From positions 11,523 through 75,522 of the forward strand of contig CAZCMV010000003.1 of NCBI GenBank assembly GCA_964500125.1: DNA of 64,000 nt, in the 5' to 3' direction. Source of the DNA: an uncultured Bdellovibrionales bacterium (GTDB lineage Bacteria > Patescibacteriota > Minisyncoccia > Moranbacterales > GWC2-37-73). This document shows, piece by piece, positions 4,752 through 59,427 of the stretch (its first letter is position 1; each line of letters begins with the position of its first letter). The position numbers were made by a program, and so were the translations under genes. The notes beneath the pieces are model-generated. The model had not been told where the DNA came from. It ran no database searches and saw nothing but the letters and a program-made list of their open reading frames with translations.

Positions 4752-6800
4752 GTGCATAGCTACAAAAAAATAGTTGAAAATAAAAATCACCCATTATTTC
4801 CGTTTATGGATTTTTTCCGCAGAAATAGAAAAACAGCCATATCATTACTCGCTATTTTTATCGTGAGTTTTTTGGGTGTATTCACAACTTTCAATCACGC
4901 TGACGCTGTGTTAATCCCTACTTATTATGCCGCTAAAGTTCTCACATCGGGGGCTTCTGGTGCTGGTGAAGCTATGGGGAACATGCTAGTAGTTGGCATA
5001 AAATACATTCTTGGTGCAATTCTTACTTTTGTCGGATGGCTGTTAATAATACCGGGAGTAATGCTGGATGCTCTTTTGAAAGTAGAAAACAATGCTTTAT
5101 ATTTGGACAGCACGGCAGTGCGAGAAGTTTGGGTAATGGTGCGCGATTTTCTCAATCTTTTTTTCATTTTCACCCTTCTTTTTTCAGCTTTTGCAACCAT
5201 TTTTCAGATCGAAAAATATCATATCAAAAAAATTATCGTCAAAATAATCATTATGGCTCTTTTGGTGAATTTCAGCTTTCCCATAGCCAGGTTTTTTATT
5301 GATATTTCTAATGTGATGATGTATTGGTTGCTCAATAATATATTTGGTGGTTCAGAAGGAGCAAGCATTGCTGCAACGCTAGCGTCAAGTTCTGGCTTAA
5401 AGGACTTGCTTATTCCTGAAAGAGCTGCTGAATATCAAGTACCGTATCTTATCGCAGCAATAATATTTACTTTTATCTTCGGCATTACTTTAATGATGAT
5501 CGCGGTATTATTTTTAGTAAGACTTATTGTTCTTTCTGTTTTGGTGATGTTTTCACCGGTTGGTTTTGTGGGTTATGTTTTTCCAGACACAGCAAAATAT
5601 GCCAAACAATGGTGGGATATGCTCTTGAAATATTCTTTTTTTGCTCCAATAATGACTTTCGGATTAGCAGTCACACTTAAAATGATGCAAAGTCTTGGTG
5701 CTAATAGTAGTGCCATGAGTAGTTTCAGAAAAGCGGCGGAAGATAACAGTGCAAATGTTGGAGCTGACGCAAATTGGATAGCGGCGGCAGCTTTTTTCAT
5801 TGTTCCGATAGTGATTCTCTGGATGTTCATGGGAGTTGCGCAGAAATTCAGCATTGAATTTGCAGGTGATGTACAGAAAAGGGGACAGGATTTGGCAAAA
5901 TGGGCCGGAAAACAACCATGGAGAGGAACAAAAGCATTGGTAAATGCCACTGGTGTCCCTGGTGGCGTAAAGGCGGGAATAGCAAAGTTCCAAAAGAGCG
6001 GTACACTTTTTGGTGTTAAAGTTTCGAGATATGGCGGAACAGATGCGCGTGAGGCGCGTGAGGCCCAATGGGCGGGATTGATGACGGGTGGTTCTTCTGG
6101 TATGAGATCTGCTACAGAAAACAGGAGGCGCAAACTTATTGCGGACAAAATGGAAGAATATAAAAAATCAGGACTGGGAGCAAGTCAGATTGAGAGAGAT
6201 CTTACGTCTAATGATGAGGTTACACGAATTGCGGCCGCGATGCACATGAATGAAAAAGGCGATCTCAATAATATTGATAGAATGAAAAAGGCACTTGCTG
6301 CTGTAGGTAATGATGCTGAAGCGCGAACTAAGATTGTTGATAAAATCGAAAATGTAGGCGCTATTTTCGAGAATAAGGATCATTACAATGATGCACTGGT
6401 AAGTGCACTTGATGGGATAGATGTGTCAACTTCTGATGGAAAACAAAAGGCTGATAAGATAAGAAAAAGTTTTGAAGCGAAGATGAAGAAAGAGAATCGC
6501 ATGGATCTTATCTTGGATCATGACGTGAAGTATGGTGTGCTTGATGCAAATTCATTTGCTTATGGAAAAACTGAAAAAGAAATATATGAAGAGCGTCTGG
6601 GCTCCCTTAATGCTGAAGGTCTTGGAAAGCAGCACAAGTTGCATAGCAAAATAGGAACAAATACTAATCTTCAAAACTTTATATTAGACAATATCGCTGG
6701 CGATTATCAGCGACATCAGGAAATGCACAGACACCTGAGTATTTCAAATCAAAGAAAATACGCTGACGAAGGTTTTGATCCAGGACCTACTCCTCCATAA
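4752..6800 (+). CDS. Polytopic membrane protein, VirB6/TrbL-like (putative type IV secretion / DNA-transfer channel component), with a C-terminal hydrophilic tail.
   Basis: Signal-like N-terminus and at least 6 predicted TM helices, then a charged roughly 300-aa tail. Lies immediately upstream of three pilin-like genes. Family assignment is by architecture only. Confidence 0.35.
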   Translation: MHSYKKIVENKNHPLFPFMDFFRRNRKTAISLLAIFIVSFLGVFTTFNHADAVLIPTYYAAKVLTSGASGAGEAMGNMLVVGIKYILGAILTFVGWLLIIPGVMLDALLKVENNALYLDSTAVREVWVMVRDFLNLFFIFTLLFSAFATIFQIEKYHIKKIIVKIIIMALLVNFSFPIARFFIDISNVMMYWLLNNIFGGSEGASIAATLASSSGLKDLLIPERAAEYQVPYLIAAIIFTFIFGITLMMIAVLFLVRLIVLSVLVMFSPVGFVGYVFPDTAKYAKQWWDMLLKYSFFAPIMTFGLAVTLKMMQSLGANSSAMSSFRKAAEDNSANVGADANWIAAAAFFIVPIVILWMFMGVAQKFSIEFAGDVQKRGQDLAKWAGKQPWRGTKALVNATGVPGGVKAGIAKFQKSGTLFGVKVSRYGGTDAREAREAQWAGLMTGGSSGMRSATENRRRKLIADKMEEYKKSGLGASQIERDLTSNDEVTRIAAAMHMNEKGDLNNIDRMKKALAAVGNDAEARTKIVDKIENVGAIFENKDHYNDALVSALDGIDVSTSDGKQKADKIRKSFEAKMKKENRMDLILDHDVKYGVLDANSFAYGKTEKEIYEERLGSLNAEGLGKQHKLHSKIGTNTNLQNFILDNIAGDYQRHQEMHRHLSISNQRKYADEGFDPGPTPP

Positions 6801-6896
6801 AATAATATATCAACACCGATATTTCTCTTTGTGATGTTCAGGTTCGATGTTTTATAATCGATCAAATGAGTTATCTTTTATGTTAGTATATTCAAA

Positions 6897-8348
6897 ATGT
6901 ATAATCAAGAAAATAATCAAAAAATAACAAATCCTATATATTTTCCCATGATCACCCCTTCAGTATTTGGAAGGGCAGATTCTGCTGATGTTAGAAAAAA
7001 AAGATGGGATATTTTTAATGCTTTGCCAGAACAAGAAAAGGATAAAATCCTTGCTCCTAATGTTGCGTTTACATTGAAAAATGTGGCTGAAAAATATGAT
7101 CTTTCCGATGAAGAGGCAATGAAAATATCAAGATTGGTGCGCGAACTTTTTTTTAGAAACATCTCTAAGGAAAATATAGCGGTTGAACTGCAAAGAAGGA
7201 TCTCAAGATTGACCAATTCCGAATTAAAAGACGTGGAAAAGATTATCATATACCAAATATTAACAGCAAATACTTCTCAAATAAAAGAAGCATCTTTTAA
7301 AACAACCAATATAATCAAATTATCTTTGGAAAATGCGCTTTCTCGATATCCAAATCTTGGTGAGCAATCAATAACAGCAAATCAGTTGCGATTACGGATT
7401 ACTCCAAATCCAGTGAAACCCTCAATCAAGAATTGGATCAGTGATTATTGCGAACAAATGGGATCGGGAAAACATGAAGCATTTGATCGTGGAAATTATC
7501 TTTTTCATAGTGAGAACACAAAAATTCTGACTGCAATCGAAAGGAAGAAACTTTCACTTGTGCTTAAATCCTTGGACGAAGGCATGTTGCTTAATGTTGA
7601 TCCGGAAAAACAAGAAGTTGTGTTTGAATTAGAGGGCAGCTCTAATATTCAAATGGAAACTTCTGTTTTGCGTCAATCAATAAATCATCTTGCGAGTCGA
7701 GGTGGGCAAATGAATAGAAATGATGAGAACATAGCAAGGCGAGAAGTTGGCAGCGGACAAAAACAAGATACGAGAAAAACAGGACCCGGAACGGGTGGTA
7801 TTGGACAGGAGGGTGGTTTCATGGATGGAATGAGAACATTGAAAGAAAAAAAAGAAGTTAAAGAAACAAAAGAAATGGAAACCTCTGCGCAAACAATATT
7901 CAGACAAAGCAATTTGCGTAATTTTTCAAATCAAAATACACGTGTTACACAACAATCTGTTGACATGACTGGAGTTAATGCAATGTCGCCAAATCAAGAA
8001 ACAAAAATAAATCAGTTTTTTGGAGAAAACTCCGTGTCTGATTTTGTCGGTAAGGGAAAAACGGAAAAATTTTCGCCGAAACCACAAGTGTCTGTTCATT
8101 CCACGGCTGTTCCGTCGAACTTTGCTGATGTTATACAAAAAAAACCAAGCAATCAAACACAAGAAAAAATAATCGAAAATGCAGCAGGAGCCGCCACGCC
8201 TGCCAGGATTGTTCCAAAATCAATGTTGTCGCAAAATGCTAATGGAGGTAGTGTAAGTTTTTCTTCGCCGCAACAATTGCCCATCGAAAAAAAACAGATG
8301 CCTTCAAAAAAATCACCTTTTAGAATTGTTCCGCATGGCGATTTGTGA
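6897..8348 (+). CDS. Hypothetical protein, 483 aa; low-complexity, Q/N/K-rich C-terminal half.
   Basis: Long ORF with no recognisable motif. Sits between the VirB6-like gene and the pilin genes. Confidence 0.5.
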   Translation: MYNQENNQKITNPIYFPMITPSVFGRADSADVRKKRWDIFNALPEQEKDKILAPNVAFTLKNVAEKYDLSDEEAMKISRLVRELFFRNISKENIAVELQRRISRLTNSELKDVEKIIIYQILTANTSQIKEASFKTTNIIKLSLENALSRYPNLGEQSITANQLRLRITPNPVKPSIKNWISDYCEQMGSGKHEAFDRGNYLFHSENTKILTAIERKKLSLVLKSLDEGMLLNVDPEKQEVVFELEGSSNIQMETSVLRQSINHLASRGGQMNRNDENIARREVGSGQKQDTRKTGPGTGGIGQEGGFMDGMRTLKEKKEVKETKEMETSAQTIFRQSNLRNFSNQNTRVTQQSVDMTGVNAMSPNQETKINQFFGENSVSDFVGKGKTEKFSPKPQVSVHSTAVPSNFADVIQKKPSNQTQEKIIENAAGAATPARIVPKSMLSQNANGGSVSFSSPQQLPIEKKQMPSKKSPFRIVPHGDL

Positions 8349-41632: not shown

Positions 41633-43084
41633 ATGGACAAGAAAAAAAATGAAAAAAATAAAATAAAATTCTCAAAATTGTTCCATGTCCATCTTACGCT
41701 TACGGGAACAATTTTTGCTATGTACATAATTTTTTCCTTGGTTTGGTCGCCGGAATTCTTGCTTGCCGATATAAGGAACAAATTCCAAGCGTTGGCTGAC
41801 GAAATAGTTAATATTTCTGCACATGTAGTCGGTCCACCTCAAAAACCTATAGTTTCAGCTAATGCAGTTTGTAACAACGGCAATCTATATGTCAATTTGG
41901 ATTGGGCGGATGATGACGGTTCGGAAAGTTTTGATGTTGAAAGGGATGGAAGCATTTTGGTGGCGGGCATAAATTCTTCCGAGTATAAGGATAGTAATTT
42001 AACAGTGGGAAACATTCATTCCTATGTGGTAACAGCAAGGGGATCAATGGGGCCTGGTTTTGCCGTTTCTGATCCTGTGACAGTGACGACTCCGGCGGAA
42101 TGTAAAGTGGTGTTGCCTCCACCAAGCGTGACAATTACTGGTATAAATAAAGGCAGTGTTAATGGAGTTATGCAAATGATTGCAACTACTTCTCAAACCC
42201 CCGTCATTTACGGCACTACTAATGTAGCGAATGCTTTGGTGGATATAGTTATCAGCGGAAATGTTAATTTTGTTTCGCAAGAGATCGCCAGCAGTAACGG
42301 TTATTGGCAATGGCAGCCGCCAACGAATTTGCCATACGGTGATTATAATATTTTTGTCACTGTGAATGATCCTAATGATTCTGATAGGACAGTAACCGCG
42401 CAATATGCCTTGCGTGTGTCCAAAGAAAAAGAAGAAGAAAAAAACAGCGGCAATAAAAAAGGGGAAAAACCAAAAAGTGTCAGTTCGGAATTAATAAATG
42501 ATCCGCAACAAGAAAGTGAAAATAAGCAAAATGTTAACCAGGAGGAACCAGAAATTCCGCTGACATATAGCCTGTTTTTGGGCAGTGTGGAAGTTTTGCA
42601 AGGAAGGAATCTGAGCGCTTCAATTGTTATTGAAAATGTGGCTGAAAAATTTTTGGGACGTGAAGCAATTGTTAGATATTCAATCTTTGATAGCAAGGGT
42701 AAATTAATCAGTGAAGATTTTACCAGTACTGTTTTGGAAAAAGGCAAAAGAGTTGATAAATATTTGCCTATTTCCAAATCAATGCTTGCAGGTGGATATA
42801 ATTTGAACAGCGAAATAATTTTCAGTGACTATGATGTTAGTCGAAATGCCAGCTTCATGGTGCTTGCTTTACCGGCGGTAAAACTCGGTGGGGGATTTGT
42901 GATTAATTATCAGGATCTGCTGAGTGAAATTGGCACAGTTTCCTTGTGGTTTTTGGTTGTATTGTTTATTTGGCTGGGCATTCTTTCGCGTGAATATTGG
43001 CTTTCCATGAATGCGCTAGATCATATTACAGAAAAAAGTTTGACCAATTTGGGTATGGTGCCGATGCGAAAGAAAAAGCGATAG
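41633..43084 (+). CDS. Cell-surface protein, 483 aa (N-terminal signal/anchor, beta-rich ectodomain, C-terminal TM anchor).
   Basis: Hydrophobic N- and C-terminal segments. Lys/Glu-rich linker 'KEKEEEKNSGNKKGEKPK'. Confidence 0.5.
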   Translation: MDKKKNEKNKIKFSKLFHVHLTLTGTIFAMYIIFSLVWSPEFLLADIRNKFQALADEIVNISAHVVGPPQKPIVSANAVCNNGNLYVNLDWADDDGSESFDVERDGSILVAGINSSEYKDSNLTVGNIHSYVVTARGSMGPGFAVSDPVTVTTPAECKVVLPPPSVTITGINKGSVNGVMQMIATTSQTPVIYGTTNVANALVDIVISGNVNFVSQEIASSNGYWQWQPPTNLPYGDYNIFVTVNDPNDSDRTVTAQYALRVSKEKEEEKNSGNKKGEKPKSVSSELINDPQQESENKQNVNQEEPEIPLTYSLFLGSVEVLQGRNLSASIVIENVAEKFLGREAIVRYSIFDSKGKLISEDFTSTVLEKGKRVDKYLPISKSMLAGGYNLNSEIIFSDYDVSRNASFMVLALPAVKLGGGFVINYQDLLSEIGTVSLWFLVVLFIWLGILSREYWLSMNALDHITEKSLTNLGMVPMRKKKR

Positions 43085-43185
43085 CGTGATATAATTAAAA
43101 TAGTTTTTACAAAGATTATTTTTCAAACTCATGCGATTTACAATCAAGTCGCAATGAGCCGCTATACGCCATGACAAATTTATGC

Positions 43186-43210
43186 AATGAAGCGCTCCGC
43201 TGGCTGGCGG
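43186..43210. repeat. Second copy of the GAAGCGCTCCGCYGGYTGGCGG element (variant palindrome CCGCTGGCTGGCGG). Compare the copy at about 12233-12256.
   Basis: 21/23-nt match between the two copies. Confidence 0.5.
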
Positions 43211-43229
43211 GTAATTATTTTGTAATTTA

Positions 43230-43538
43230 GTGTGTTGTATGGAAAAATATTTTTATCTCGTCAATGCCATCACTATCGCCGCATTATTATTGGCGATTGC
43301 TTATACTGCTGGTATTGTATGGCGCACAGAAAACGAGCTGGACGTGTCGTATAAATTTTTTCTGGCAGGAGTTGTATTTTTATTGATAGCGGAAGTAGCG
43401 GATCTCTACTATGCAATTGATAGGCAAATGATTATTGCGTTGCTTATAAAAATCCTGAAAGCCTTGTTTGCTGTTTGCTTTTTAGTTGGCACGCTTTTCA
43501 TGCGTGACATTATGCGCAAACTTGATGGAGAGAAATGA
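43230..43538 (+). CDS. Small 3-TM membrane protein, about 100 aa.
   Basis: ORF with three hydrophobic helices. Confidence 0.35.
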   Translation: MCCMEKYFYLVNAITIAALLLAIAYTAGIVWRTENELDVSYKFFLAGVVFLLIAEVADLYYAIDRQMIIALLIKILKALFAVCFLVGTLFMRDIMRKLDGEK

Positions 43539-43601: not shown

Positions 43602-44318
43602 ATGGCTAAGTATCATTTGAAAAATATATTTGCAGCAATTTCAATCGTCGCATGTGTGTTTGCGGCCTCTTTTGCTCAAGCTGATATGAGCAGCTCCAGT
43701 TATTCCATCAGCGCTGACGCAATCAACATCGGGGGAGGCAGACAAGTTTCTGAAGAATATGTGGAGCAAAATATGTTGGGCGAAGTCGGTACTGGCGGTT
43801 TGCGCAGTTCGACGTATATCATGGATGCCGGTTTCTTGGCGATGGTTGGCAATGAGGAGATACTTACTTTTGAGATGACCAAAAACACAGCAGATCTGGG
43901 CACATTGGTCAGTAACTTGGTCAAAGCGGATACGGCAACTTTTCGTGCTGCTACCACAGCCAAAAGCGGTTATGCAATTTCCGTATATGGCAATTCGCTT
44001 TCTTCAGTTTCACACACTATTGAGCCGCTTTCCAGCGCCTCCAGTTCTTCCACAGGCAATGAACAATTCGGTTTTAATTTGAGGCAAAACAACAATCCCA
44101 CAATAGGAAGTGATCCCAGTGGGGGAAATGGGCAGGCAGCAATGGGATATTCAACTACGGATGCATATAAATTCACTTCTGGCGATATCATTGCCGAGTC
44201 CTCTAATCAGTCAACATATACTAATTACACTGCATCCTTCATTGGCAATATCAGTAATATCAGTGATGCAGGAGAATATGCTACAAGTCTTACGATCGCG
44301 GTAACTGGCAGGTTCTAA
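43602..44318 (+). CDS. Secreted beta-rich surface protein, paralogue A (WxL-domain-like C-terminus ending ...GEYATSLTIAVTGRF).
   Basis: Signal peptide. Ser/Thr/Gly/Asn-rich. C-terminal motif shared with the next gene. Confidence 0.5.
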   Translation: MAKYHLKNIFAAISIVACVFAASFAQADMSSSSYSISADAINIGGGRQVSEEYVEQNMLGEVGTGGLRSSTYIMDAGFLAMVGNEEILTFEMTKNTADLGTLVSNLVKADTATFRAATTAKSGYAISVYGNSLSSVSHTIEPLSSASSSSTGNEQFGFNLRQNNNPTIGSDPSGGNGQAAMGYSTTDAYKFTSGDIIAESSNQSTYTNYTASFIGNISNISDAGEYATSLTIAVTGRF

Positions 44319-44414
44319 AAATGGATAAGTAGCCATAGGGGATTTGACAAAAGTATGTTATTATACACATGGAAGGAAAGATGCTTTTGAAAAGTAAAAT
44401 AAAAATATAAACAT

Positions 44415-45497
44415 ATGCAAAAAAATGAATTTAAAGTGAAATATGTTTTGCTAGTTTGTAGAGATTTGTTAACACTTTTGTTGTTAGTTTGTATTATTGT
44501 GCCAGCTTTTAATGTCAAGGCAGCATCAATGCCTGCTCGTGATTACATGAATCGAAACACTGCTAATCTCACAACTGGCGTAACGCATGAAATAATTTTT
44601 ACTCCAGCAACAATGACCTCAGGAAGCTTGATATTGATATTTCCTGATGCTGATGATGGATTATGGTGTCGCACCGCAGGTTCTTTAGCTACCGCAACAA
44701 CTTCGCTTCATGATTCTGCAACAGCTCTTCCTGGGACACTTTCGGCAAGCTGTACGCAAGGTTCTGGAGCCTCAAATTATGACACTATAACCATAACGGG
44801 CATGGGAAGTATAACCGGTGGTTCAACATATGGAGTTAGAATTTCCGGAAATACTGGAGCACTGGGAACAACAAGTTCAGCAACAACTTCAATTGTTACA
44901 GTTAAGACAAACAATGGTAGCGATGTTGACTCCAGAAATATCGCTCTTGTTACTGTGGCTAATGATCAGATAAGCATCACTGGAAAAGTTGATCCGACTT
45001 TTACTTTTGGTATAACTGACACTCAAATCGGTTTTGGTACTATCACTTCTGCCGCTTTGCGTCACGCCACAGCTGATGAAGTCGGCGCCGCTTCCGCTCC
45101 GGAAAATGGTGCGCCAACCACAATTTCAGCTTCAACAAATGCGCAGTCGGGCCTTGTTATTGAGGTGAGAGATCAGAATGCAGCAGCCGGAAGCGGTATG
45201 TATAATTCCAGCCCGGAAACTACTTTGACTTCTCGCGCCAGTACAGCGGTTTCCGCAGGTACAATTGGTTTTGGTGTATATGGAAAAAATGCTTCCAATA
45301 TAACTTTAGATGAAGGTTTTGATCATGATTCCGATTCTGATTTGGCAATCAGCACTTCTTTTCAGACGATAGCTTCCGCTGCTGCGCCAGTATCTTCAGC
45401 ATCTTTTGACTTGGCTGCGGTATCGGCTGTGGCTGCTTCCACGGCGCCTGGTGATTATGCCGATACTTTGACGCTGGTGGCAACTGGAAGATTCTGA
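44415..45497 (+). CDS. Secreted beta-rich surface protein, paralogue B (ends ...GDYADTLTLVATGRF).
   Basis: Signal peptide. Thr/Ser/Ala/Gly-rich. Same C-terminal G-[DE]-Y-A-x-[ST]-L-T-[IL]-x-[AV]-T-G-R-F motif as paralogue A. Confidence 0.5.
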   Translation: MQKNEFKVKYVLLVCRDLLTLLLLVCIIVPAFNVKAASMPARDYMNRNTANLTTGVTHEIIFTPATMTSGSLILIFPDADDGLWCRTAGSLATATTSLHDSATALPGTLSASCTQGSGASNYDTITITGMGSITGGSTYGVRISGNTGALGTTSSATTSIVTVKTNNGSDVDSRNIALVTVANDQISITGKVDPTFTFGITDTQIGFGTITSAALRHATADEVGAASAPENGAPTTISASTNAQSGLVIEVRDQNAAAGSGMYNSSPETTLTSRASTAVSAGTIGFGVYGKNASNITLDEGFDHDSDSDLAISTSFQTIASAAAPVSSASFDLAAVSAVAASTAPGDYADTLTLVATGRF

Positions 45498-45528
45498 ATA
45501 ATTGAAATGGGGGTATAAAATAGTTTAT

Positions 45529-46518
45529 ATGAAAAATTATTTCGCATTTACCGCTAGTATCATTATTTTTGCCAGCATTCTTCTTGGCGTGCGCGATGCG
45601 CACGCTCTTACTGTTTCTCCGCCGGTCAAAGAATTAGCCGGCGATCCTGGTTCGGTCGTGCAGTATGTTGTTAAGCTTTATAACGAAACCAGGGATGCAG
45701 TGACTGTGAAAGCAACAGCAACTAATTTCACTGCCAAGGAAAATGGCGCGGGCGAGCCTCAGTTTGCAGATTTAGGAACCGAAAGAGAAGCGACGCATGA
45801 CCTTGCCTCTTGGATGTCTGTGCCCGAGGGTTTGATTACAATTAATCCGCTTGATTGGCAAACTGTCATCATTAATATTAATATCCCTAAGGACGCTGAA
45901 CCGGGCGGGCACTATGCAGCCGCATTTTTTACGCCGAATAAAATCGAAAACACCGGTAAAGATGGCGTAAGTGTGGATTATAAAACAGGATCCCTGGCAT
46001 TGCTTACTGTTACGGGTGAAGCCAGGCAAGGTGGCAATGTCAAAAGTTTTACTCTTAGAGGCGACAAATCTTTTTATGAATATGTCCCAGTAAACATGGA
46101 ACTGCGCGTGGAAAACACAGGCAACGTGCATTTTAAACCGGGTGGCATGGTGGAAATTAAAAATATTTTCAACAAAAAAGCTGGCGAAATTGCCGTAACG
46201 GATTCTGATTCCGGTGGCAATGTCTTGCCGAATAGTACTCGCAGATATGATTTGACCTGGGAAAAACAAGAAGACAAAAATGGTCCGCAAGATTTTTGGT
46301 CTAAAGTGCAATATGAATTCAAACATTTTCGCTGTGGACGCTATGTCGCTACTGCTTCTGTGGACTTGCCACAGGGTCAAGCTGCTCCACATACTCTTTC
46401 TTTTTGGATTATTCCGTGGCAACTGTTGTTGGTAGTTATTATAGGTCTTACTTTATTGATTCTCTTATTTAGAACGTATAATCGCTGGATAATCAAGAAG
46501 GCAAAAAATGGTTGCTAA
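45529..46518 (+). CDS. Surface protein with signal peptide and C-terminal TM anchor plus short basic tail (DUF916/DUF3324-like, CscA-like architecture).
   Basis: 'ALTVSPPVKELAGDPGS' after the signal. C-terminal 'FWIIPWQLLLVVIIGLTLLILLFRTYNRW'. Start set at MKNYF; the track ORF starts at TTG 27 nt upstream. Confidence 0.45.
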   Translation: MKNYFAFTASIIIFASILLGVRDAHALTVSPPVKELAGDPGSVVQYVVKLYNETRDAVTVKATATNFTAKENGAGEPQFADLGTEREATHDLASWMSVPEGLITINPLDWQTVIININIPKDAEPGGHYAAAFFTPNKIENTGKDGVSVDYKTGSLALLTVTGEARQGGNVKSFTLRGDKSFYEYVPVNMELRVENTGNVHFKPGGMVEIKNIFNKKAGEIAVTDSDSGGNVLPNSTRRYDLTWEKQEDKNGPQDFWSKVQYEFKHFRCGRYVATASVDLPQGQAAPHTLSFWIIPWQLLLVVIIGLTLLILLFRTYNRWIIKKAKNGC

Positions 46519-46612: not shown

Positions 46613-46641
46613 TTGACTTTAGGCAAAAAAACTGCTATAAT
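46613..46641 (+). promoter_or_regulatory. Consensus sigma70 promoter: TTGACT, 17-nt spacer, TATAAT.
   Basis: Perfect -10, 5/6 -35, optimal spacing. Confidence 0.6.
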
Positions 46642-46664
46642 AGATGTATATAGAAGTGGAGGAA

Positions 46665-46686
46665 AACGGGTGAAAGCCCGTTTTTT
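46665..46686 (+). promoter_or_regulatory. Leader hairpin plus U-tract (AACGGG-TGAAAG-CCCGTT-TTTTTT) in the 5' UTR of the 957-aa gene. Paralogous copy upstream of the gene at 60159.
   Basis: Terminator-like structure roughly 20 nt downstream of the promoter and roughly 25 nt before the ATG. Confidence 0.5.
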
Positions 46687-46712
46687 ATCTATTTCAGGTC
46701 AAAAATTTAGGC

Positions 46713-49586
46713 ATGCGCATCAAAATTCATACAAAAACAAAATCCGTAACTAGGGGGCTACGAGTAGGAGAGCTACTCTTTTTTGTGGCCATTTTTTCAT
46801 CTTTATTCCTGGGAACTTCTTCGGCAAAAGCTGCTTTCAATGAAAGCATCAACTATCAAGGCAAGTTGACTGATGGAAATGCAATTCCTGTATCTGACGG
46901 GGCATACGACATTGTTTTTAAGCTTTATGATGCGGCTGCGGGTGGCTCAACAGTCTGGAATGAATCTTTGACTAGTTCCAATCTTTGGACTGAGACGGTG
47001 AGTACGACAATAACGCGCAACGCTGCAGGTTGTGGAGGCAGTGGCTTCACTAGTATCGTTTATGCTACGGGAACTAACGAGGCATCTATTGCTATTGGAC
47101 AGACGATTTGGAACACTACTTTGAAAGAATCAGCAGTGGTTACAGACATAACAACTGGCACTAATACGCTTTGTGTTTCTAATCCCTATTCTTCTTGGGC
47201 TAATTCGGATGATCTTACTAATCGGGTGTATATTAAAAGCGGACTTTTTTCGGTGATGTTGGGAAAGTATGAAAGTCTTTCTTCTGTGGACTTCAATCAA
47301 ACTCTTTATCTTGGTGTGTTAGTCGGAAACGATTCGGAAATGGTGCCTCGCAAGATGATTGGAGCCGTTCCGGCTGCTTTTACGGCCAAAACACTTAATA
47401 ATAACGGAAGCGCTGCGATTGCTACAAATGATGGCGCCACTTTGAATATCGGTAATACCACGGGAGCTGTTACAATGAATTCAGGCGGCGTTTCTGCATG
47501 GACAAATACGGCTGGAAATTTGACCATTTCTACAGCAACTTCCGGAATATTAACCTTAAATTCGGCAGGATCGCTTGATTTGACTGGCGCTTCAGCTTCC
47601 AGTTTTGCCACTACGGCAGGCAATATTACTTTGCAATCAGCCGGCTCAAGTACTGTTGGTACCGTGCAAATTGGTGCTGGGGGAGTTGGTTCTATTACGC
47701 CTGATTTTTTTGGTTTAGACGTGAAATCAGACACCGGTGATCCCGCTGGTGGTTTCGAAGGTGCTATGTATTATAATACTTTCGATAATAAGTTTAGATG
47801 TTATCAAAACGCTGGTTGGACCGATTGCATCAGCGCTGGCGGAAGCACTACATTGCAAAATTCCTATGATCAGACAAATGGGAACACAATTGTTTCTACT
47901 TCAGGAAAAAACATAGCGCTTACGCTTGAAGAAGTTGACACGCCAACCTCATTTGCGATTGAAAATCAAGACACTTCTGGAATCAATGCAGAATATATAA
48001 ATAATTCAATCACTTCGGGAACATTGGCAAATGCGCTTACAATTGACAATACAGGTGCTGGTACTATTACTAATGCGATTAATATTTTAGAAACAGCTGG
48101 AACAATAACGACGGGGATTAATATTGGTAATAATGTAGGAACGGGAATTTCCATCGGGACTGGCGCGACCACAGGTATTTTTGTTGGTTCAGGTGGTGTT
48201 ACGATTGCTGCCGGTGCATTGAATGTCAATTCTGATGAAATTATTTCAGATGGTTCTACGCTTACTATAAATGCCGGAGGAATAGTCGATATTCAAGATA
48301 TTCTAAATGCAGATTCAATCACTTCTGATGCGGGTGTCTCCATTGCTTCTGGTGGAAGTTATACAGGCGCTGGTGCAGTAACACTTTCTTCAGCTTCTGC
48401 TTCGGCACTTACGATTGATTCGGGAACAACAGGAAATCTCGATATAGGCACCGGGGCAAATGCTAAAATAATTACGCTTGGAAATTCCACTGGTGCTACC
48501 GTGGTCAATATAAATTCCGGCACTGGCGGCATTAGCTTTCAGGCAGCAGGAACCGGAACAACAGATACTATCCAAATTGGTGAAGGGGGAAGTGGTTCTT
48601 CAACGCCTGATATTTTAGCACTTGATGTGAAATCTGATTCTGGAGATCCGGTAGGTTTTGAAGGAGCGATGTACTATAACAACAATATTAATAAGTTTCG
48701 ATGTTACCAAGATACAGCATGGACGGACTGTATCGGTGCAGGGGGCGGTAGTGGTGGTGATAATATAAGTATTAATGGAACTTCCATAACTGATGCTGAT
48801 TTTGACAATGTTACCCCGGCTTCTCCCATGGGAGGAGTAAATATGAAATGGCAAAGAGATTCTTCTACGCCTAATAATGTAAGCGCTTATTTTGATTTTG
48901 CAGATTATGATGGAGCTTTTAAGAAAAAGCCGACCTATGCATCTGATTTTATTTCCGGAACAGCAGTAGCTTATAATCTGCCATTTGTTGGGGCGGGTAT
49001 TTCTTCCGGAACAGTAACTGCTCCTTTGGCAGCGGCTATTGATAGTGATCACCCTGGTATTATGCGCTTACGTTCAAATACAACTGCCAATGGAGGGTAT
49101 CGCTATCAAGCTTATGCGGACTCAATTCGTTTTAAGGGCGGAGAAATATTTAATGCAGTTTTATATCATGAAAATATTGATACGACGATCGTAAGAATGG
49201 GATTTAATGACAATACAACTTACGCTGATGCGGTTGATGGTTGTTATTTTGAAGTTCCAACAACCGGAGTTGTAATTGGAAAATGTTCCAATGATTCAAC
49301 GAGAACGTCAACAACAGGAAGTTATACGATTTCAACTGGTACGTGGTATTCATATAGGGTCACTTTGAACTCTGATGCCACATTGGCGACGTTTGAAATT
49401 TTTGATAGTAACGGAAATTCTCTTTGGACAAGCAATAATACCGTTTCGTCCAATATACCGACTGCAGCTGGCAGAGAAACAACTGCGGGCATAATCGCTA
49501 CCGAGTCCTCAACTACGGCAACGTATATGGTTGATTTGGATTATATGAGTTTCAGTTTAGGAACCGCAAGCCCATTGGCGCGTTAG
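46713..49586 (+). CDS. Large secreted Gly/Thr/Ser-rich surface protein, 957 aa, with internal repeats.
   Basis: Signal peptide. Repeated about 40-aa module 'LDVKSD(T/S)GDP..GFEGAMYYN...NKFRCYQ...WTDCI' twice (about aa 330-375 and 640-680). C-terminal roughly 250-aa beta-rich domain. Confidence 0.6.
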   Translation: MRIKIHTKTKSVTRGLRVGELLFFVAIFSSLFLGTSSAKAAFNESINYQGKLTDGNAIPVSDGAYDIVFKLYDAAAGGSTVWNESLTSSNLWTETVSTTITRNAAGCGGSGFTSIVYATGTNEASIAIGQTIWNTTLKESAVVTDITTGTNTLCVSNPYSSWANSDDLTNRVYIKSGLFSVMLGKYESLSSVDFNQTLYLGVLVGNDSEMVPRKMIGAVPAAFTAKTLNNNGSAAIATNDGATLNIGNTTGAVTMNSGGVSAWTNTAGNLTISTATSGILTLNSAGSLDLTGASASSFATTAGNITLQSAGSSTVGTVQIGAGGVGSITPDFFGLDVKSDTGDPAGGFEGAMYYNTFDNKFRCYQNAGWTDCISAGGSTTLQNSYDQTNGNTIVSTSGKNIALTLEEVDTPTSFAIENQDTSGINAEYINNSITSGTLANALTIDNTGAGTITNAINILETAGTITTGINIGNNVGTGISIGTGATTGIFVGSGGVTIAAGALNVNSDEIISDGSTLTINAGGIVDIQDILNADSITSDAGVSIASGGSYTGAGAVTLSSASASALTIDSGTTGNLDIGTGANAKIITLGNSTGATVVNINSGTGGISFQAAGTGTTDTIQIGEGGSGSSTPDILALDVKSDSGDPVGFEGAMYYNNNINKFRCYQDTAWTDCIGAGGGSGGDNISINGTSITDADFDNVTPASPMGGVNMKWQRDSSTPNNVSAYFDFADYDGAFKKKPTYASDFISGTAVAYNLPFVGAGISSGTVTAPLAAAIDSDHPGIMRLRSNTTANGGYRYQAYADSIRFKGGEIFNAVLYHENIDTTIVRMGFNDNTTYADAVDGCYFEVPTTGVVIGKCSNDSTRTSTTGSYTISTGTWYSYRVTLNSDATLATFEIFDSNGNSLWTSNNTVSSNIPTAAGRETTAGIIATESSTTATYMVDLDYMSFSLGTASPLAR

Positions 49587-54968: not shown

Positions 54969-57900
54969 CTATCTCTCGTCATTTTTGACGAACGTTTTAA
55001 ACAAGATCGGAATAATAAAGAGGGTAAAGAATGAAGAAATGGTGAGGCCGAAGATTATGGCACTGCCCAAGGCAGTCCACATCTCATTGGAAAGTGTGAT
55101 CGGGATGATGCCGGCGATAGTGCAGATAGAAGTGATGAAAATCGCTTCCAGTCGAGATTTTCCTGCGTCGACAATGGAATCATCAAATCCAATGCCACTC
55201 TCGATATTTAAATTTATTTTATCAATAAGGATAATAGCGTTTTTCACCACGATACCAAACAAAGCCAATATGCCGATGAGTCCGGGAAAACTCAAGGATA
55301 CGCCAAACGTCGCCATACCGATAAACACGCCAATTAGAGCGAGCGGCAAAGTTACCAATACAATTATTGATTTTTTGAAAGAGTTAAATTGAATGATCAA
55401 AGTTGAAATGATCAAAACTGCGGCGACGGCCATGGCGCGGACAATGGATAGAACAGATTCTTGATTCTGCTCGTTTTCGCCGCCATAAGTTATTTCATAT
55501 CCCTGGGGAAGCTGGTATTCTTCGGCAACTTTTTTCTGAAATTGAGTAAGGACATCATTTGGTCTGGTTTTGCCTTCAACTCCAGCGCTGAGAATGGCTA
55601 CGCGCTTTTGATCAATGTGGCTGATTGTTTCTATGGATGGTTCTAGTTTTATCGTTGCGACATCTTTGATAAATACGGGGTTTCCTTGCAAGTTGGTGAG
55701 TTGGATGTTTTGAACAGCTTCAAGATTAGGCAGTTTGTTCTTGTCGAAACGAGCTGTCACGTCATATTCCTTGTTGTTTTTGATAATTGTGGAAACATCA
55801 ACGCCGGAAATTGCCATACGGATAGAAGAACCAACATATGTTGCGTTAAGACCGTATAATTCCATTTTCACGGGATCAAGTGTAAAAGTATATTGGGCCG
55901 GAGCTTCTTTAAGGGAGGAATCTATATTTACAACACCGTCGATTGTGGTCAGCTTCTTTTCCAAGTCTTTTGTTATGTTGTCTAAAACTTGCAAATCATC
56001 ACCGCTAATTTGCGCCTCAAAAGCACTGCCTGATGGCGGACCGCCCTGTTGTGATTCTACGGTAATATTTGCTCCCTCAATGCCGGATAGCGTTTCTCGG
56101 ATGTCTTTTTCCAACTCATAGGAAGTTTTATCACGACTTTCCTTATCAACTAGGGTTATTGTTATTGCGGCCAAGTGAGTTGAGCCGGAAGAACCACTTT
56201 TACCAACGATCGTGGAAAAGTTCTTAATTTGAGGGAATGTCAGCAGTTTTTCTTCAACTTGTTTTGCAATATTGTCTGTCTTGGCAAGATTTAGACCGAT
56301 AGGGGCTTCTAAATCTACGTAGATAGTTCCTTGGTCGGATACTGGAAAAAATTCGGAAGGAACTACGCCGGTTATGGGCAGGATTATTGCTCCGATGAAT
56401 AAAACAAGAGTGGTTAATAAAGTAGTCCAACGCCTTTTTTTGGTGGATAGAACTGCCTTTAAATATTTTTCATATATGGGAACAATTTTGTCAAAATGAA
56501 TAATTCCGTGTATTAGTTTGCTGGAAAAAGATGAATCTTCAGCGCTACCCTGCAAGGCTAATTTTTTCTTGATAAGTTCATCATCTTTCCATTCTTTTTT
56601 GGCTAAAGCTTCATTGGCGAGTAATTTTCTTTTACCTTTGGTGCGATACCACCAAAAAAGCCAAGCTGCCATAGTCAAAGAAATTGCGGTTAACGCGCTG
56701 CCAAGAGTAGATTTGCTGGCAAAACCTGCTATCGCTAGGCCTAAAAGAATAACTATATTGGTGCGAAAGATATTACGTGTGAAGCGGATGCGTTCCAGTA
56801 CGGCGGCAAGTGGATGATTGACTACCAGAGCAATAAGTAGGGAGGTTATAAGTGTTACCGAAACAGTTATCGGAATTGAGCGTATATATGAACCAATAAT
56901 TCCGCTTGAAAAAAGAAGTGGTAAAAACGCCCAAGTGGTCGCCAAGGTAGTCGAGGTGAGAACGACTTTGAAATCGTTAAGCACGAGCAAAACCGCTTCT
57001 TCTGGCGTAAATTTTCCCGTACGCATGTATTGTTTGGTTGCGCTTACTACCACAATTGCATCATCAACAAGCAAACCCAAAGAAAGCAGCAAAGAAAACA
57101 AAGAGAGAAAATTCAAGGTTATGCCCGTAAGAAGCATTATTCCGAATGTTGCGAAAAATACCAAAGGTATGGCTAGACCAGCTACAATCGCCTCCTTGAA
57201 ACCTACAATAAGAAACAAGATAGTCATCACTAACGCCAAGGTCAGAATAAAATCATGAGATAGTTGGTCGAAATCATCGCGGATGAATTCGGACATGTCA
57301 GTGGTTGTATCATGGGAAATTCCTTCGGGAAATGTTTTAACCATTGTCTCAATGGTCTTTTTGCATTCATCGGTGGTTTCTATTATAGATCCACCGGTTT
57401 TTTTAATGATGCTTATGGTGACTGCTTCTTGCGGTTTGTTGCCATTAATTGAAAGACGCGAATACACATTTCTTTCGATCGCTGTTTCTTTAACTGAGGC
57501 AACATCCTTCAATTGAACTATTGCCATGCCATTGTGTTTGATGGGGATTTCGCCTAATGATTGTTCGTCAAAAAAGCGCGCGTCTGTGCGTACGGGATAA
57601 TTAAAAGAGGTTCCTTCGAAATTTCCGCCAGCTATTGCAACGTTGGTTGCACTTATAGCTGAGTTTGCTTGACTTGCAGTAATGCCATAGAGGGAAAGTT
57701 TTTGTGGGTCATAGGCAACCTCAAATTCTTTTTCGTCTCCTCCCGATATGTTTACCTCGCGGACTCCGGAAATTTTTTCCAACTCATCTTGTAATTTCTC
57801 TGCATAAGTTCGCAGAGTAAGACCGTCATATGGTCCAGAAAGAGAAAAAGTAAAAATCGGACTGTCATCAAATGAAATTTCGTTTACAAAAGGGTCGTTT

Positions 57901-58331
57901 GCATCAGCAGGCAAGTCCTTTATTGTTGAAACCTTGTCGCGTAGGTTGCGCAAAGCTTCATCTTGATCTTCGCTGCTATCAAATTCCACCGCAATTGAAG
58001 AGATTGAGTTGAAAGAGTCGGAAGTGATTTTTTTTACTCCCTTGATGCTGGAAATTTCAGTTTCAATTTTTTTGGTTACCAACTCTTCAATATCGGAAGG
58101 TGATGTTCCAGGGAAAGATGTTACTACCATTGCATAAGGTATTTTCACCTCCGGATTGGATTCACGGGGAAGGCTTATGAAGGAATATGTTCCCCAAGCA
58201 CTAAGCAGAATAATCAAAAGAATAACTACGCGAAAATTGGTTACGAAAAAATTAAGCCATGTTTTGCGAAGTTCCGGTTTGAATTCAAGTTTTTCCAGAT
58301 ATCTGGAATCTGAAGATTGTTGTTTTTTCAT
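54969..58331 (-). CDS. RND-family efflux transporter permease (AcrB/HAE-like, 12-TM), 1120 aa.
   Basis: Two large extracytoplasmic loops and two 6-TM bundles. Length and hydropathy typical of the RND superfamily. Confidence 0.75.
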   Translation of the reverse strand: MKKQQSSDSRYLEKLEFKPELRKTWLNFFVTNFRVVILLIILLSAWGTYSFISLPRESNPEVKIPYAMVVTSFPGTSPSDIEELVTKKIETEISSIKGVKKITSDSFNSISSIAVEFDSSEDQDEALRNLRDKVSTIKDLPADANDPFVNEISFDDSPIFTFSLSGPYDGLTLRTYAEKLQDELEKISGVREVNISGGDEKEFEVAYDPQKLSLYGITASQANSAISATNVAIAGGNFEGTSFNYPVRTDARFFDEQSLGEIPIKHNGMAIVQLKDVASVKETAIERNVYSRLSINGNKPQEAVTISIIKKTGGSIIETTDECKKTIETMVKTFPEGISHDTTTDMSEFIRDDFDQLSHDFILTLALVMTILFLIVGFKEAIVAGLAIPLVFFATFGIMLLTGITLNFLSLFSLLLSLGLLVDDAIVVVSATKQYMRTGKFTPEEAVLLVLNDFKVVLTSTTLATTWAFLPLLFSSGIIGSYIRSIPITVSVTLITSLLIALVVNHPLAAVLERIRFTRNIFRTNIVILLGLAIAGFASKSTLGSALTAISLTMAAWLFWWYRTKGKRKLLANEALAKKEWKDDELIKKKLALQGSAEDSSFSSKLIHGIIHFDKIVPIYEKYLKAVLSTKKRRWTTLLTTLVLFIGAIILPITGVVPSEFFPVSDQGTIYVDLEAPIGLNLAKTDNIAKQVEEKLLTFPQIKNFSTIVGKSGSSGSTHLAAITITLVDKESRDKTSYELEKDIRETLSGIEGANITVESQQGGPPSGSAFEAQISGDDLQVLDNITKDLEKKLTTIDGVVNIDSSLKEAPAQYTFTLDPVKMELYGLNATYVGSSIRMAISGVDVSTIIKNNKEYDVTARFDKNKLPNLEAVQNIQLTNLQGNPVFIKDVATIKLEPSIETISHIDQKRVAILSAGVEGKTRPNDVLTQFQKKVAEEYQLPQGYEITYGGENEQNQESVLSIVRAMAVAAVLIISTLIIQFNSFKKSIIVLVTLPLALIGVFIGMATFGVSLSFPGLIGILALFGIVVKNAIILIDKINLNIESGIGFDDSIVDAGKSRLEAIFITSICTIAGIIPITLSNEMWTALGSAIIFGLTISSFFTLFIIPILFKTFVKNDER

Positions 58332-58338
58332 ATGATAG

Positions 58339-59427
58339 TTAGTCCTGAATTTTTACTTTGCTGCCATCTTTGAGAAGCTTGCTTCCTTCGATTGCTATTT
58401 GTGCATCTTCTTTTAAATCAGCTTTTATTTCGGCGTTTTCTCCAAAAATTCGGACAATTTCGAAACCTACTTTTTTAGCCGTGTTGTTTTCAATTACAAA
58501 AATATAATTTTCATTTTGAGCTATATTCATTGCTGAAAGAGGCAATAAGATATTTTGCTCATCGATAACACTGTCGGTTTGCCGTATCTTCACGGAAAGA
58601 ATTGCCCCTGGTTTTAGGGAGAGGGTCTGATCTGGTTGTGCGTCTATTTGAAATCTTTTTGTTATGTTGTCCGCTTGCGGCGATATGTTTGTTATGGTGG
58701 CTTCGCTTGTTGAGCCGTCGGATGAAACGACAGAAATCTTGCCCCCTATTTTTAGAAAGGGTACTCTTTCTTGCTCCACAAAAAAGCTGAGTTTAACTTT
58801 ATTAGTTTTGCTGATAACGGCAATTGTTTGTCCAGCAGTAACAGAATCTCCCACGGATACATTTTTAGAAACAACTGAGCCACTAATTGGCGAAGTTATG
58901 TTATGAGAATCCAGGGCGCTTTTTAAGGATATGTTTGCATTTTCCAATTGAAGCTTGGCAAGATCTTTTGCTGTTCTAGTGGTGGGTGTGCTATCCTCAT
59001 TTTTGTTTTTTTTAGCCAATCTTAAATTTTCTTCTGCTTGCTGGATCGCTATTTCCAACTGTTGAATTTGAATGCTTTTGAGATTGTTTTCACCCGTTCC
59101 CAGATTGAAGCCAGTATCGTCAATTTTTGCCAAAAAACTGCCAGCGGCAACGTTTTTGCCGAGATCGAAATTGAGCGCCGTGATTGTACCTGAAGTTTTT
59201 GCGGTGATCGTGGCCTCTTGATCCGCGTTTACTGTGGCTGGATATTCGTTGATGTTGATAATACTTTTACTTTCAGAAACATTTTGCGTGCTTACGGATA
59301 TGGATTTTTCGGGAGCAGGAGTGGTTTCGCCGGTTGATTTTTCGACGGAACTTCTGAAAATTATTAATCCTGTGAATAAAACGATAGGTAATATTATAAA
59401 AAATATGTTTTTCTTCATGATTTGCAT
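58339..59427 (-). CDS. Efflux periplasmic adaptor / membrane fusion protein (HlyD/AcrA-like).
   Basis: N-terminal TM, coiled-coil 'LEIAIQQAEENLRLAKKNK', beta-barrel/lipoyl-like regions. 8 nt upstream of the RND gene. Confidence 0.7.
   Translation of the reverse strand: MQIMKKNIFFIILPIVLFTGLIIFRSSVEKSTGETTPAPEKSISVSTQNVSESKSIININEYPATVNADQEATITAKTSGTITALNFDLGKNVAAGSFLAKIDDTGFNLGTGENNLKSIQIQQLEIAIQQAEENLRLAKKNKNEDSTPTTRTAKDLAKLQLENANISLKSALDSHNITSPISGSVVSKNVSVGDSVTAGQTIAVISKTNKVKLSFFVEQERVPFLKIGGKISVVSSDGSTSEATITNISPQADNITKRFQIDAQPDQTLSLKPGAILSVKIRQTDSVIDEQNILLPLSAMNIAQNENYIFVIENNTAKKVGFEIVRIFGENAEIKADLKEDAQIAIEGSKLLKDGSKVKIQD

Follow-up and report, generated by a model that had tools for sequence, protein, structure and literature searches.

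A PamR-less gene trio in a patescibacterial contig as a probable minimal operon for a Pam-type pilus, with a putative chaperone related to WxLIP (CscA) proteins

What kind of surface structure is encoded by two adjacent genes for secreted proteins with a common ending, followed by a third for a membrane-anchored protein, is the question raised by this locus, which lies in a window (the whole stretch of DNA that was analysed) of 64,000 nucleotides. The original prediction took the set for a divergent WxL/Csc-type surface complex that could serve host attachment; in our reading a CPR (Patescibacteria) bacterium here encodes, with good probability, a Pam-type pilus in a minimal operon, P1-P3. Pam pili were described in 2026 in the CPR parasite Ca. 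Mycosynbacter amalyticus, where the members PamT, PamA/B/E, PamC/D and PamR belong to donor-strand-exchange pili; the inter-domain linker of PamA and PamB is the donated strand, both proteins carry paired cysteines, PamR is an RbmA-like, TM-anchored terminator/anchor (NF058578), and the assembly model of the preprint is based on AlphaFold predictions (bioRxiv 10.64898/2026.03.03.709456). What is new here is a PamR-less variant of this very recently described kind of pilus, seen as genes only, the filament being putative. The features of the trio are as follows.

43602..44318, forward strand: P1, PamT-like subunit, 238 aa; one Pam pilin C-domain (85-238) behind a signal peptide; ends GEYATSLTIAVTGRF and the stop.
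44271..44315, forward strand: terminal strand of P1, GEYATSLTIAVTGRF, with the shared motif noticed in the original prediction.
44415..45497, forward strand: P2, putative shaft pilin, 360 aa; signal peptide, N-sandwich, linker and C-domain; ends GDYADTLTLVATGRF and the stop.
Domains of P2: N-terminal beta-sandwich at residues ~37-180, linker at 183-195, Pam pilin domain at 196-360.
44961..44999, forward strand: P2 linker 183-195, NDQISITGKVDPT, putative donor strand for the C-domain groove of a neighbouring subunit.
45450..45494, forward strand: terminal strand of P2, GDYADTLTLVATGRF.
45529..46518, forward strand: P3, predicted PamC/PamD-type chaperone, 329 aa from an ATG, with an alternative TTG at 45502 (338 aa); ends FWIIPWQLLLVVIIGLTLLILLFRTYNRWIIKKAKNGC.
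Parts of P3: behind the signal peptide, a pair of Ig-like/PapD-like domains; at the C-terminus, a TM helix and then the basic tail with its conserved Y-N-R-W.
46390..46458, forward strand: TM helix of P3, FWIIPWQLLLVVIIGLTLLILLF, then the basic tail RTYNRWIIKKAKNGC; the helix occupies residues 297-328 in the model.

The three open reading frames lie on the forward strand where the original prediction had placed them, each beginning with a hydrophobic, signal-like segment (read by eye from the sequence). P1 and P2 are indeed adjacent, secreted, Trp-poor beta proteins of 238 and 360 aa, with no Trp anywhere in P1 and the sole Trp of P2 situated in its N-terminal domain, and they do share the ending G-[DE]-Y-A-x-[ST]-L-T-[IL]-x-[AV]-T-G-R-F-stop. 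In a six-frame translation of the window, the TGRF-stop is confined to these two proteins (0.055 occurrences expected per shuffled window), and proteins bearing the motif are found well beyond this contig, with 169 relatives among GTDB species representatives. When P1 is compared with P2 by BLASTP the last 15 residues alone are detected (E = 0.002), whereas hhalign of the family profiles aligns P1 85-238 with P2 193-360 at a probability of 98.9% (E = 1.3e-17), that is, over a domain of about 150 residues; thus, the term “paralogues” used originally holds for the C-terminal domain and fails for the remainder of the two proteins. Across 238 such C-domains the end is strictly constrained, with G at position -14 in 100%, Y at -12 in 99% and F or Y as the final residue in 100%, as would be expected if the C-terminus were the edge of a groove recognised by a chaperone; Trp is missing from 190 of the 238.

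The NCBIfam model of PamT (NF058579) matches P1 with E = 7.2e-49 and 166 bits against an equivalog cut-off of 240, in an alignment that spans residues 11-238 of 238 in the protein and positions 8-241 of 241 in the model, and PamT orthologues of Saccharibacteria exceed that cut-off with 304 and 272 bits. The C-domain model Pam_pilin_C (NF058581) gives P1 132.7 bits, above its cut-off of 55, and P2 itself 19 bits, below it, so that the assignment of P2 rests on family transitivity, 32 of the 41 members of the P2 family being matched (best E = 6.5e-42). As judged from these profiles, both P1 and P2 belong to the Pam pilin C-domain family. A scan with a linker PSSM revealed no donor-strand-like segment in P1, which would therefore be a putative acceptor-only tip subunit.

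In the AF2 monomer model of P2 (pLDDT 91.5), residues 41-179 form some 10 strands, residues 181-195 are without secondary structure, and the C-terminal beta domain spans 196-358; a conserved pair, Cys85/Cys113, lies within the N-terminal sandwich. This predicted architecture is the plan of PamA and PamB known from cryo-EM, the comparison being made with those proteins as described. With 3.08 bits, where the C-domain averages 2.25, the linker ranks with the best-conserved 11-mers of the family, and by analogy it may be the strand donated to the next subunit. A Foldseek search of the PDB with P2 returned generic tandem Ig matches only, with TM-scores of at most 0.26 and no PamA/PamB entry among them; in sequence searches of the PDB, the P1-family profile had no match, and P1, P2 and P3 submitted one by one gave nothing meaningful.

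The third protein was originally said to carry a signal peptide, a C-terminal TM helix and a basic tail and to be akin to the DUF916/DUF3324 CscA proteins, and on both counts the prediction was right. The ATG at 45529 is more likely the start of P3 than the TTG at 45502, because 329 aa is the length of an identical database protein (P0051). From the signal peptide and the positive-inside rule, the ectodomain would be outside and the tail in the cytoplasm; across 64 homologues, little or no variation is seen at P296, W297, Y317 and N318. Pfam PF06030 (DUF916) matches P3 with 23.5 bits and E = 5.9e-5 (gathering score 27.3), 29 of the 64 homologues at E < 0.01, and the protein at the PamD position in Saccharibacteria with 28.1 bits, above the gathering score, while the top sequence-profile match of P3 in the PDB is a DUF916/DUF3324 CscA protein (WxLIP, E = 0.009). 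Between the P3 family and seven real WxLIPs, hhalign gives 98.2% (E = 5e-14) over 254 columns that include both domains, against 2.6% for the reversed control. P3 thus consists of two tandem Ig-like domains, homologous to WxLIP across both, and a C-terminal TM helix, and at the level of profiles it is demonstrably a genuine relative of WxLIP (CscA), a link that the Pam preprint does not mention (bioRxiv 10.64898/2026.03.03.709456). By predicted architecture and gene position it is likened to the PamC/PamD-type chaperones, taken as described; no match to Pfam PapD_N or PapD_C (PF00345/PF02753) was found in any of the 64 homologues, and its resemblance to PapD is one of fold only.

The gene order is conserved as well. 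A PamT-like gene, one to three pilins and a P3-like gene follow each other on one strand in 60 of 85 CPR loci, most of the others being truncated contigs; in two loci (L022 and L070) the P3-like gene occupies the position of PamD, between pilin and PamR, and in the first of these, a complete genome, PamT is the first gene of the operon and, like PamR, exceeds its NCBI equivalog cut-off. Family membership, domain architecture, this gene order and the homology to WxLIP are all observed properties of the trio. Of 43 Saccharibacteria-type loci, 39 have PamR, as against 0 of 7 loci of other CPR lineages. In the 64-kb window a PamR HMM built from 47 sequences had no match at E <= 10 among six-frame ORFs of at least 50 aa, nor had NF058578 among nine neighbouring proteins, and the termination/anchoring step of the published model is consequently missing here. 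An upstream protein of 483 aa with Ig-like domains and a C-terminal TM helix was considered as a substitute for PamR, an idea that found no support: it showed neither a donor-strand-like segment by the linker PSSM nor a match to the PamR HMM, and it is conserved in L001-L006 only. Pam pili have so far come from one cultured Saccharibacteria-type parasite, and the present locus shows a three-gene core in other CPR lineages, which are without the proposed PamR anchor. This narrows the list of essential parts and prompts the question how the fibre stays attached to the cell.

The trio probably encodes, then, a stripped-down Pam pilus, built by donor-strand exchange with a chaperone and without an usher, in which P1 would be the tip, P2 the shaft and P3 a helper anchored in the membrane. 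For a locus known here from its genes alone, we infer filament formation, subunit order, anchoring and role as follows: (i) P1, P2 and P3 would be exported via Sec, P3 being retained in the cell's own membrane by its C-terminal helix; (ii) the two PapD-like domains of P3 would cap the incomplete Ig-like C-domain of freshly exported subunits; (iii) P1 would begin the fibre as its distal tip, since it has the acceptor domain and is without the donor linker; (iv) P2 subunits would join successively, the incoming linker (~183-195) displacing the chaperone strand from the C-domain groove of the previous subunit, and their N-terminal sandwich would decorate and stiffen the shaft; (v) and finally, in a lineage without PamR, the base of the fibre would most likely be held at the membrane by P3 itself, chaperone and anchor in one. 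Contact with a host cell would probably be mediated by the fibre, and the original idea of host attachment fits, by analogy, with Pam pili.

The likeness to the published pili extends to the tip-like and pilin C-domain families, a two-domain pilin with a linker, a TM-anchored two-domain chaperone, the gene order, the superphylum, and the paired Cys of P2, as in PamA/PamB. They differ in that the window encodes a single pilin and a single chaperone rather than the three and two of M. amalyticus, has no PamR, and gives PamT (P1) and Pam_pilin_C (P2) matches below the curated cut-offs; moreover, its lineage is not Saccharimonadia, the nearest named relatives being Moraniibacteriota, Buchananbacteria and unclassified Patescibacteria. 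Unlike the chaperone-usher pili (Pap, Fim, CFA/I, Csu), the trio has no usher or outer membrane, its chaperone is membrane-anchored, and its putative donor strand is an internal linker instead of an N-terminal extension; no usher or PapD Pfam match was found among the nine neighbouring proteins. The TLP-1a/b fibrils from pond water (CryoSeek; PDB 9IKJ/9IKK; PMC11494351) have a single-domain subunit with an N-terminal donor from subunit n+4 and only 13% identity to P2, and because their closest sequences come from Flavobacteriales, the idea that they are CPR Pam pili was rejected.

How far the WxL comparison carries is another matter. The WxL fold is a buried hydrophobic platform under a mobile N-terminal strand, and in Firmicutes WxLIP is thought to be a chaperone-cum-anchor for WxL proteins. 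On the reading of the locus as a Firmicute-style WxL/Csc complex, P3 would hold P1 and P2, as divergent WxL proteins without Trp, by non-covalent contacts at the cell surface in a short polysaccharide- or host-binding platform, with no polymer. A WxL cluster is defined by a WxLIP encoded beside at least two WxL proteins, and the layout found here, a small protein consisting of the C-terminal domain only, a larger one that ends in it and one TM-anchored two-Ig WxLIP homologue, is that of the commonest cluster type (PMC10599100). P3 is moreover homologous to WxLIP over its full length, both having a C-terminal TM helix; the terminal strand Y-x-x-T-L-T-aromatic is spaced like the second WxL motif, and the sole local hhalign matches of the two domains are their first and last strands, which are collinear. 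The beta-hairpin strand of WxLIP is predicted to insert into WxL (PMC10599100, PMC9772566), a parallel to the predicted insertion of the Pam chaperone strand into the pilin C-domain. However, the WxL C-terminal domain, of 160-190 aa, has two Trp-x-Leu motifs on adjacent strands (PMC10599100, PMC9772566), neither of which is found in P1 or P2, and the Pam C-domain stops at its conserved terminal aromatic where WxL continues x-L-x-D-x-P. PF13731 (WxL) has no match in P1 or P2 at E <= 1, while a real WxL protein scores 227 bits with the same tool; hhalign of the Pam C-domain profiles with 15 real WxL domains gives 0.1-3.8%, or 0.9% with the 238-sequence profile, no better than cross-family controls, against 99.0% for small versus large WxL. 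Further against this reading, filaments resolved by cryo-EM are built from sequence relatives of P1 and P2, WxL proteins being taken as peptidoglycan-bound and not filamentous (PMC10599100, PMC9772566); the linker of P2 is conserved, as one would expect of a donor strand, and the scanned neighbours included neither an LPXTG protein nor a sortase. A sequence-profile search found no WxL chain in the PDB. By their profiles, P1 and P2 are thus not detectably WxL domains, the two neighbours of P3 carrying the Pam C-domain instead; this part of the original prediction was not borne out, and a WxL/Csc complex is an unlikely account of the locus.

Very unlikely, too, is that P1 and P2 are separate, monomeric binding proteins that P3 would merely tether to the membrane by beta-strand complementation, without polymerisation. 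Such adhesins would account for the missing PamR, in the window as in 7 of 7 non-Saccharibacteria loci, there is a single pilin gene, and the presence of the Pam C-domain on proteins of ~870 aa elsewhere (L038) suggests a general docking module. The linker, however, is as conserved as the groove strand, a finding not easily accounted for unless subunits donate strands to one another, and the pair formed by an acceptor-only P1 and a donor-plus-acceptor P2 has its counterpart in the tip and shaft subunits of Pam pili and of chaperone-usher pili.

The relation of Pam pili to the WxL clusters may be deeper. We put forward tentatively, and with some doubt, that Pam pili and WxL/Csc clusters could both descend, as separate branches, from a single ancient monoderm system, in which the Pam C-domain and WxL would be remote homologues and an anchored PapD-like chaperone (PamC/D or WxLIP) would hand over subunits with an incomplete beta-domain. 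If so, the shared terminal strand would be a relic of the ancestor, WxL proteins, instead of merely sticking to peptidoglycan, would be put together through strand complementation and might form short fibres, and the PamR-less trio would be the form nearest the common ground plan. Enterococci, listeriae and lactobacilli commonly carry WxL clusters, which are tied to virulence and adhesion and whose assembly has been a puzzle for about 20 years; one paper is said to have proposed that the TM helix of WxLIP inserts into host membranes. The analogy with Pam provides a testable alternative, namely that WxLIP would stay in the membrane of the bacterium itself and serve there, by beta-strand complementation, both as chaperone and as anchor. 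In the literature searched, no paper was found for the PDB entries 9i1y/9i25 and none linking WxL to chaperones or pili.

Downstream of the trio lies the 957-aa repeat protein that the original prediction had placed under a strong promoter; its gene and repeat were recovered, the promoter being a consensus match only and the function putative.

46613-46641, forward strand: promoter-like site between P3 and P4 (consensus match), followed at 46661-46686 by a hairpin with a T-run.
46713..49586, forward strand: P4, secreted repeat protein of 957 aa; SO2946-like C-terminal domain (Pfam PF22237, E = 6.7e-24).

Among the sigma-70-like matches of the region the site ranks first (TTGACT-17-TATAAT with an extended -10, matching at 11 of 12 positions), and the total of promoter-like matches there is not above that of shuffles; the predicted promoter and hairpin suggest that P4 may be transcribed separately from P1-P3. 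A motif of ~55 aa containing Cys is present in two copies in P4. A tail fibre-like protein is reported as a central neighbour of pam genes (bioRxiv 10.64898/2026.03.03.709456), and P4 is probably this protein, taken here as an associated neighbour rather than as an established part of the pilus; a search of PHROGs with P4 had no match, and the label “tail fibre” is to that extent unconfirmed. P4-like genes are likewise found downstream of the trio in L005/L008, L006 and L007.

The three genes are a real feature, a new minimal variant of the Pam pilus system, which had itself been described only months before, and their family membership, domain plans and conserved synteny are established. The positions given in the original prediction were borne out, with all three ORFs on the plus strand, and the features concerned are the following (window coordinates):

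41633-43538, a 483-aa protein and a small membrane protein of ~99 aa, the pair directly upstream of P1
43602-44318, +, P1, ORF of 238 aa, PamT-like putative tip subunit
44415-45497, +, P2, ORF of 360 aa, two-domain shaft pilin
45502-46518, +, P3, TM-anchored PamC/PamD-type chaperone, with the ATG at 45529 as the likelier start, since it gives 329 aa, the length of an identical database protein
46713-49586, P4, 957-aa product of the downstream neighbour
54969-59427, -, AcrB-family RND transporter (1120 aa, E = 5e-188) adjoining an HlyD-type membrane-fusion protein

The NCBIfam Pam models trace to a 2026 preprint in which cryo-EM of the filaments of the CPR parasite Ca. Mycosynbacter amalyticus led to two-domain pilins, PamA and PamB, each of which donates the single strand between its domains to the next subunit, whose Ig-like C-domain is truncated. 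Further products of the pam operon are PamT, a single-domain candidate for the tip; PamC and PamD, which resemble PapD/FimC chaperones and have a C-terminal TM helix; PamE, an additional pilin; and PamR, an RbmA-like terminator with a TM anchor (bioRxiv 10.64898/2026.03.03.709456). P1 matches the model "CPR-type pilus protein PamT" over its full length (E = 7e-49, under the equivalog cut-off), and exceeds the cut-off of the "Pam pilus system pilin subunit" domain. P2 alone is marginal against the C-domain model (19 bits), and 32 of its 41 homologues match it, the best with E = 6.5e-42. In the AF2 model of P2 (pLDDT 91.5), residues 181-195 are unstructured and connect an N-terminal sandwich to a C-terminal beta domain. 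This linker (DQISITGKVDP) and the terminal strand rank among the best-conserved stretches of the family, as the preprint also reports for the donated strand and the site that binds it. The Cys85/Cys113 pair is invariant.

P1 ends in GEYATSLTIAVTGRF and P2 in GDYADTLTLVATGRF, and the motif TGRF-stop that they share is unique to these two ORFs when the window is translated in all six frames, with 0.055 expected per shuffled window. P1 contains no Trp, and P2 a single one that lies in its N-terminal half. By BLASTP their similarity is limited to the final 15 residues; with family profiles, a shared domain of ~150 residues joins P1 85-238 and P2 193-360 (hhalign 98.9%, E = 1.3e-17).

The comparison with the WxL/CscA clusters of Firmicutes proved half right, as it holds for P3 and finds no support in sequence profiles for the C-domains of P1 and P2. 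The reference clusters were found on plasmids, using a fragment of EfmWxLIP1 as query, and gave 7 WxLIP, 9 small WxL and 6 large WxL proteins. The P3 family aligns with WxLIP over 254 columns across both domains (hhalign 98.2%, E = 5e-14; reversed control 2.6%), EfmWxLIP1 is the top PDB sequence match of its profile (E = 0.009), and Pfam WxLIP_PGBD matches 29 of the 64 P3 homologues. The chaperone thus belongs to the WxLIP/CscA family, and it also has fold similarity to PapD-type chaperones. This membership is what is new beyond the Pam description, as the preprint makes no mention of WxL or DUF916 and our literature search found no paper connecting them with Pam. EfmWxLIP1 is chain C of a multi-chain entry, PDB 9i25, for which the literature search found no describing paper; a WxL profile search of the PDB returned no WxL chain or structure, and therefore the partner chains are either something else or too divergent.

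The Pam C-domain profiles, on the other hand, reach only 0.1-3.8% against WxL (0.9% with a 238-sequence profile), cross-family controls being no worse, whereas small against large WxL gives 99%, and the local matches comprise the first and last strands only. The second WxL motif and the Pam terminal core Y-x-x-T-L-T-aromatic do have the same spacing. Pam domains end at a strictly conserved aromatic residue (F or Y), preceded by Gly at -14 in 100% of cases and by Tyr at -12 in 99%. This arrangement has a parallel in classical chaperone-usher subunits, in which a Gly 14 positions before the C-terminus is likewise conserved and the last residue is aromatic. In a Saccharibacteria MAG (CAYRGD010000001.1, locus L038:632-8500), three tandem ORFs of ~860-890 aa each carry a C-terminal Pam pilin C-domain (E = 1e-36, 5e-32 and 8e-44), and long N-terminal extensions are also found in loci L013 (546 aa), L053 (488 aa) and L069 (563 aa). 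Judged from sequence, the C-domain behaves as a module bearing variable cargo, comparable to the "large WxL" proteins.

The family is not unique to this contig: one P1-family alignment scan gave 169 relatives among GTDB species representatives, the majority in Saccharibacteria and some in Moraniibacteriota, Buchananbacteria and unclassified Patescibacteria. In a sample of 85 loci (80 fetched, five via exact-match look-ups), profiled with HMMs of the three families, 60 show, in this order and on a single strand, a PamT-like gene, one to three two-domain pilins and a P3-like gene; the other 25 are mostly truncated contigs. One complete Saccharibacteria genome (L022) has PamT and PamR proteins that exceed the NCBI equivalog cut-offs, and there the P3-like gene occupies the PamD position, with a Pam pilin on one side and PamR on the other. 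Of 43 Saccharibacteria-type loci, 39 have PamR after the chaperone, against none of seven from other CPR lineages, the clade of the window among them. In the window each of the three kinds is represented by a single gene, and the search for PamR gave no homologue at E <= 10; the window therefore carries a minimal, PamR-less variant. Several MAGs with the CPR-type operon are labelled "uncultured Bdellovibrionales", "Nanoarchaeia archaeon" or "Bathyarchaeia archaeon" (record titles of L006, L011 and L065; L045; protein P0108), which probably reflects mis-binning or automatic mislabelling and not genuine occurrence outside CPR.

In such a system the three proteins would all be exported by Sec, and P3 would be anchored in the membrane of the cell itself, because it has a signal peptide and, as predicted, a C-terminal hydrophobic helix followed by a basic tail. 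A strand of P3 would cap the C-domains of the subunits, P1 would be an acceptor-only tip, P2 could polymerise via its own linker, and, without PamR, the base of the fibre might be retained by P3.

The cytoplasmic juxtamembrane tail of P3 (46390-46518) is conserved as K-x-Y-N-R-W-I-I-K-K-A, its Y-N-R-W motif being invariant and Y317 and N318 present in all 64 homologues. This conservation is much stronger than in Firmicute WxLIPs, whose tails are generically basic, and may point to a partner in the cytoplasm or at the interface.

P4 has an SO2946-like C-terminal domain and a Cys-containing motif that occurs twice, and it has no match in PHROGs. P4-like genes lie downstream of the three in related loci, in agreement with the "tail fibre-like" neighbour of the Pam preprint, and nothing ties P4 physically to the pilus. 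Its gene has a strong promoter-like site of its own, the best of the region, followed within ~20 nt by an 11-bp hairpin with a T-run, only ~27 nt upstream of the ATG (all within 46613-46713); this could be the P1-P3 terminator, lying across the promoter of the next gene, or else a leader or an attenuator.

In the upstream 483-aa protein, a TM segment at the N-terminus is followed by Ig-like (Big_13) domains, and a low-complexity linker leads to the C-terminal TM helix. A role for it as a substitute for PamR is unsupported, the protein being clade-specific: conservation of the pair is limited to the closest relatives (L001-L006). Two large ORFs of 682 and 483 aa (4752-8348) have no Pfam match at E <= 1e-5, and the remaining window is ordinary chromosome (UvrD, RNase Y, pyruvate kinase, DnaG, RpoD). 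The AcrB-family and HlyD-type efflux pair is typical of diderms, yet the genome is apparently that of a monoderm CPR bacterium.
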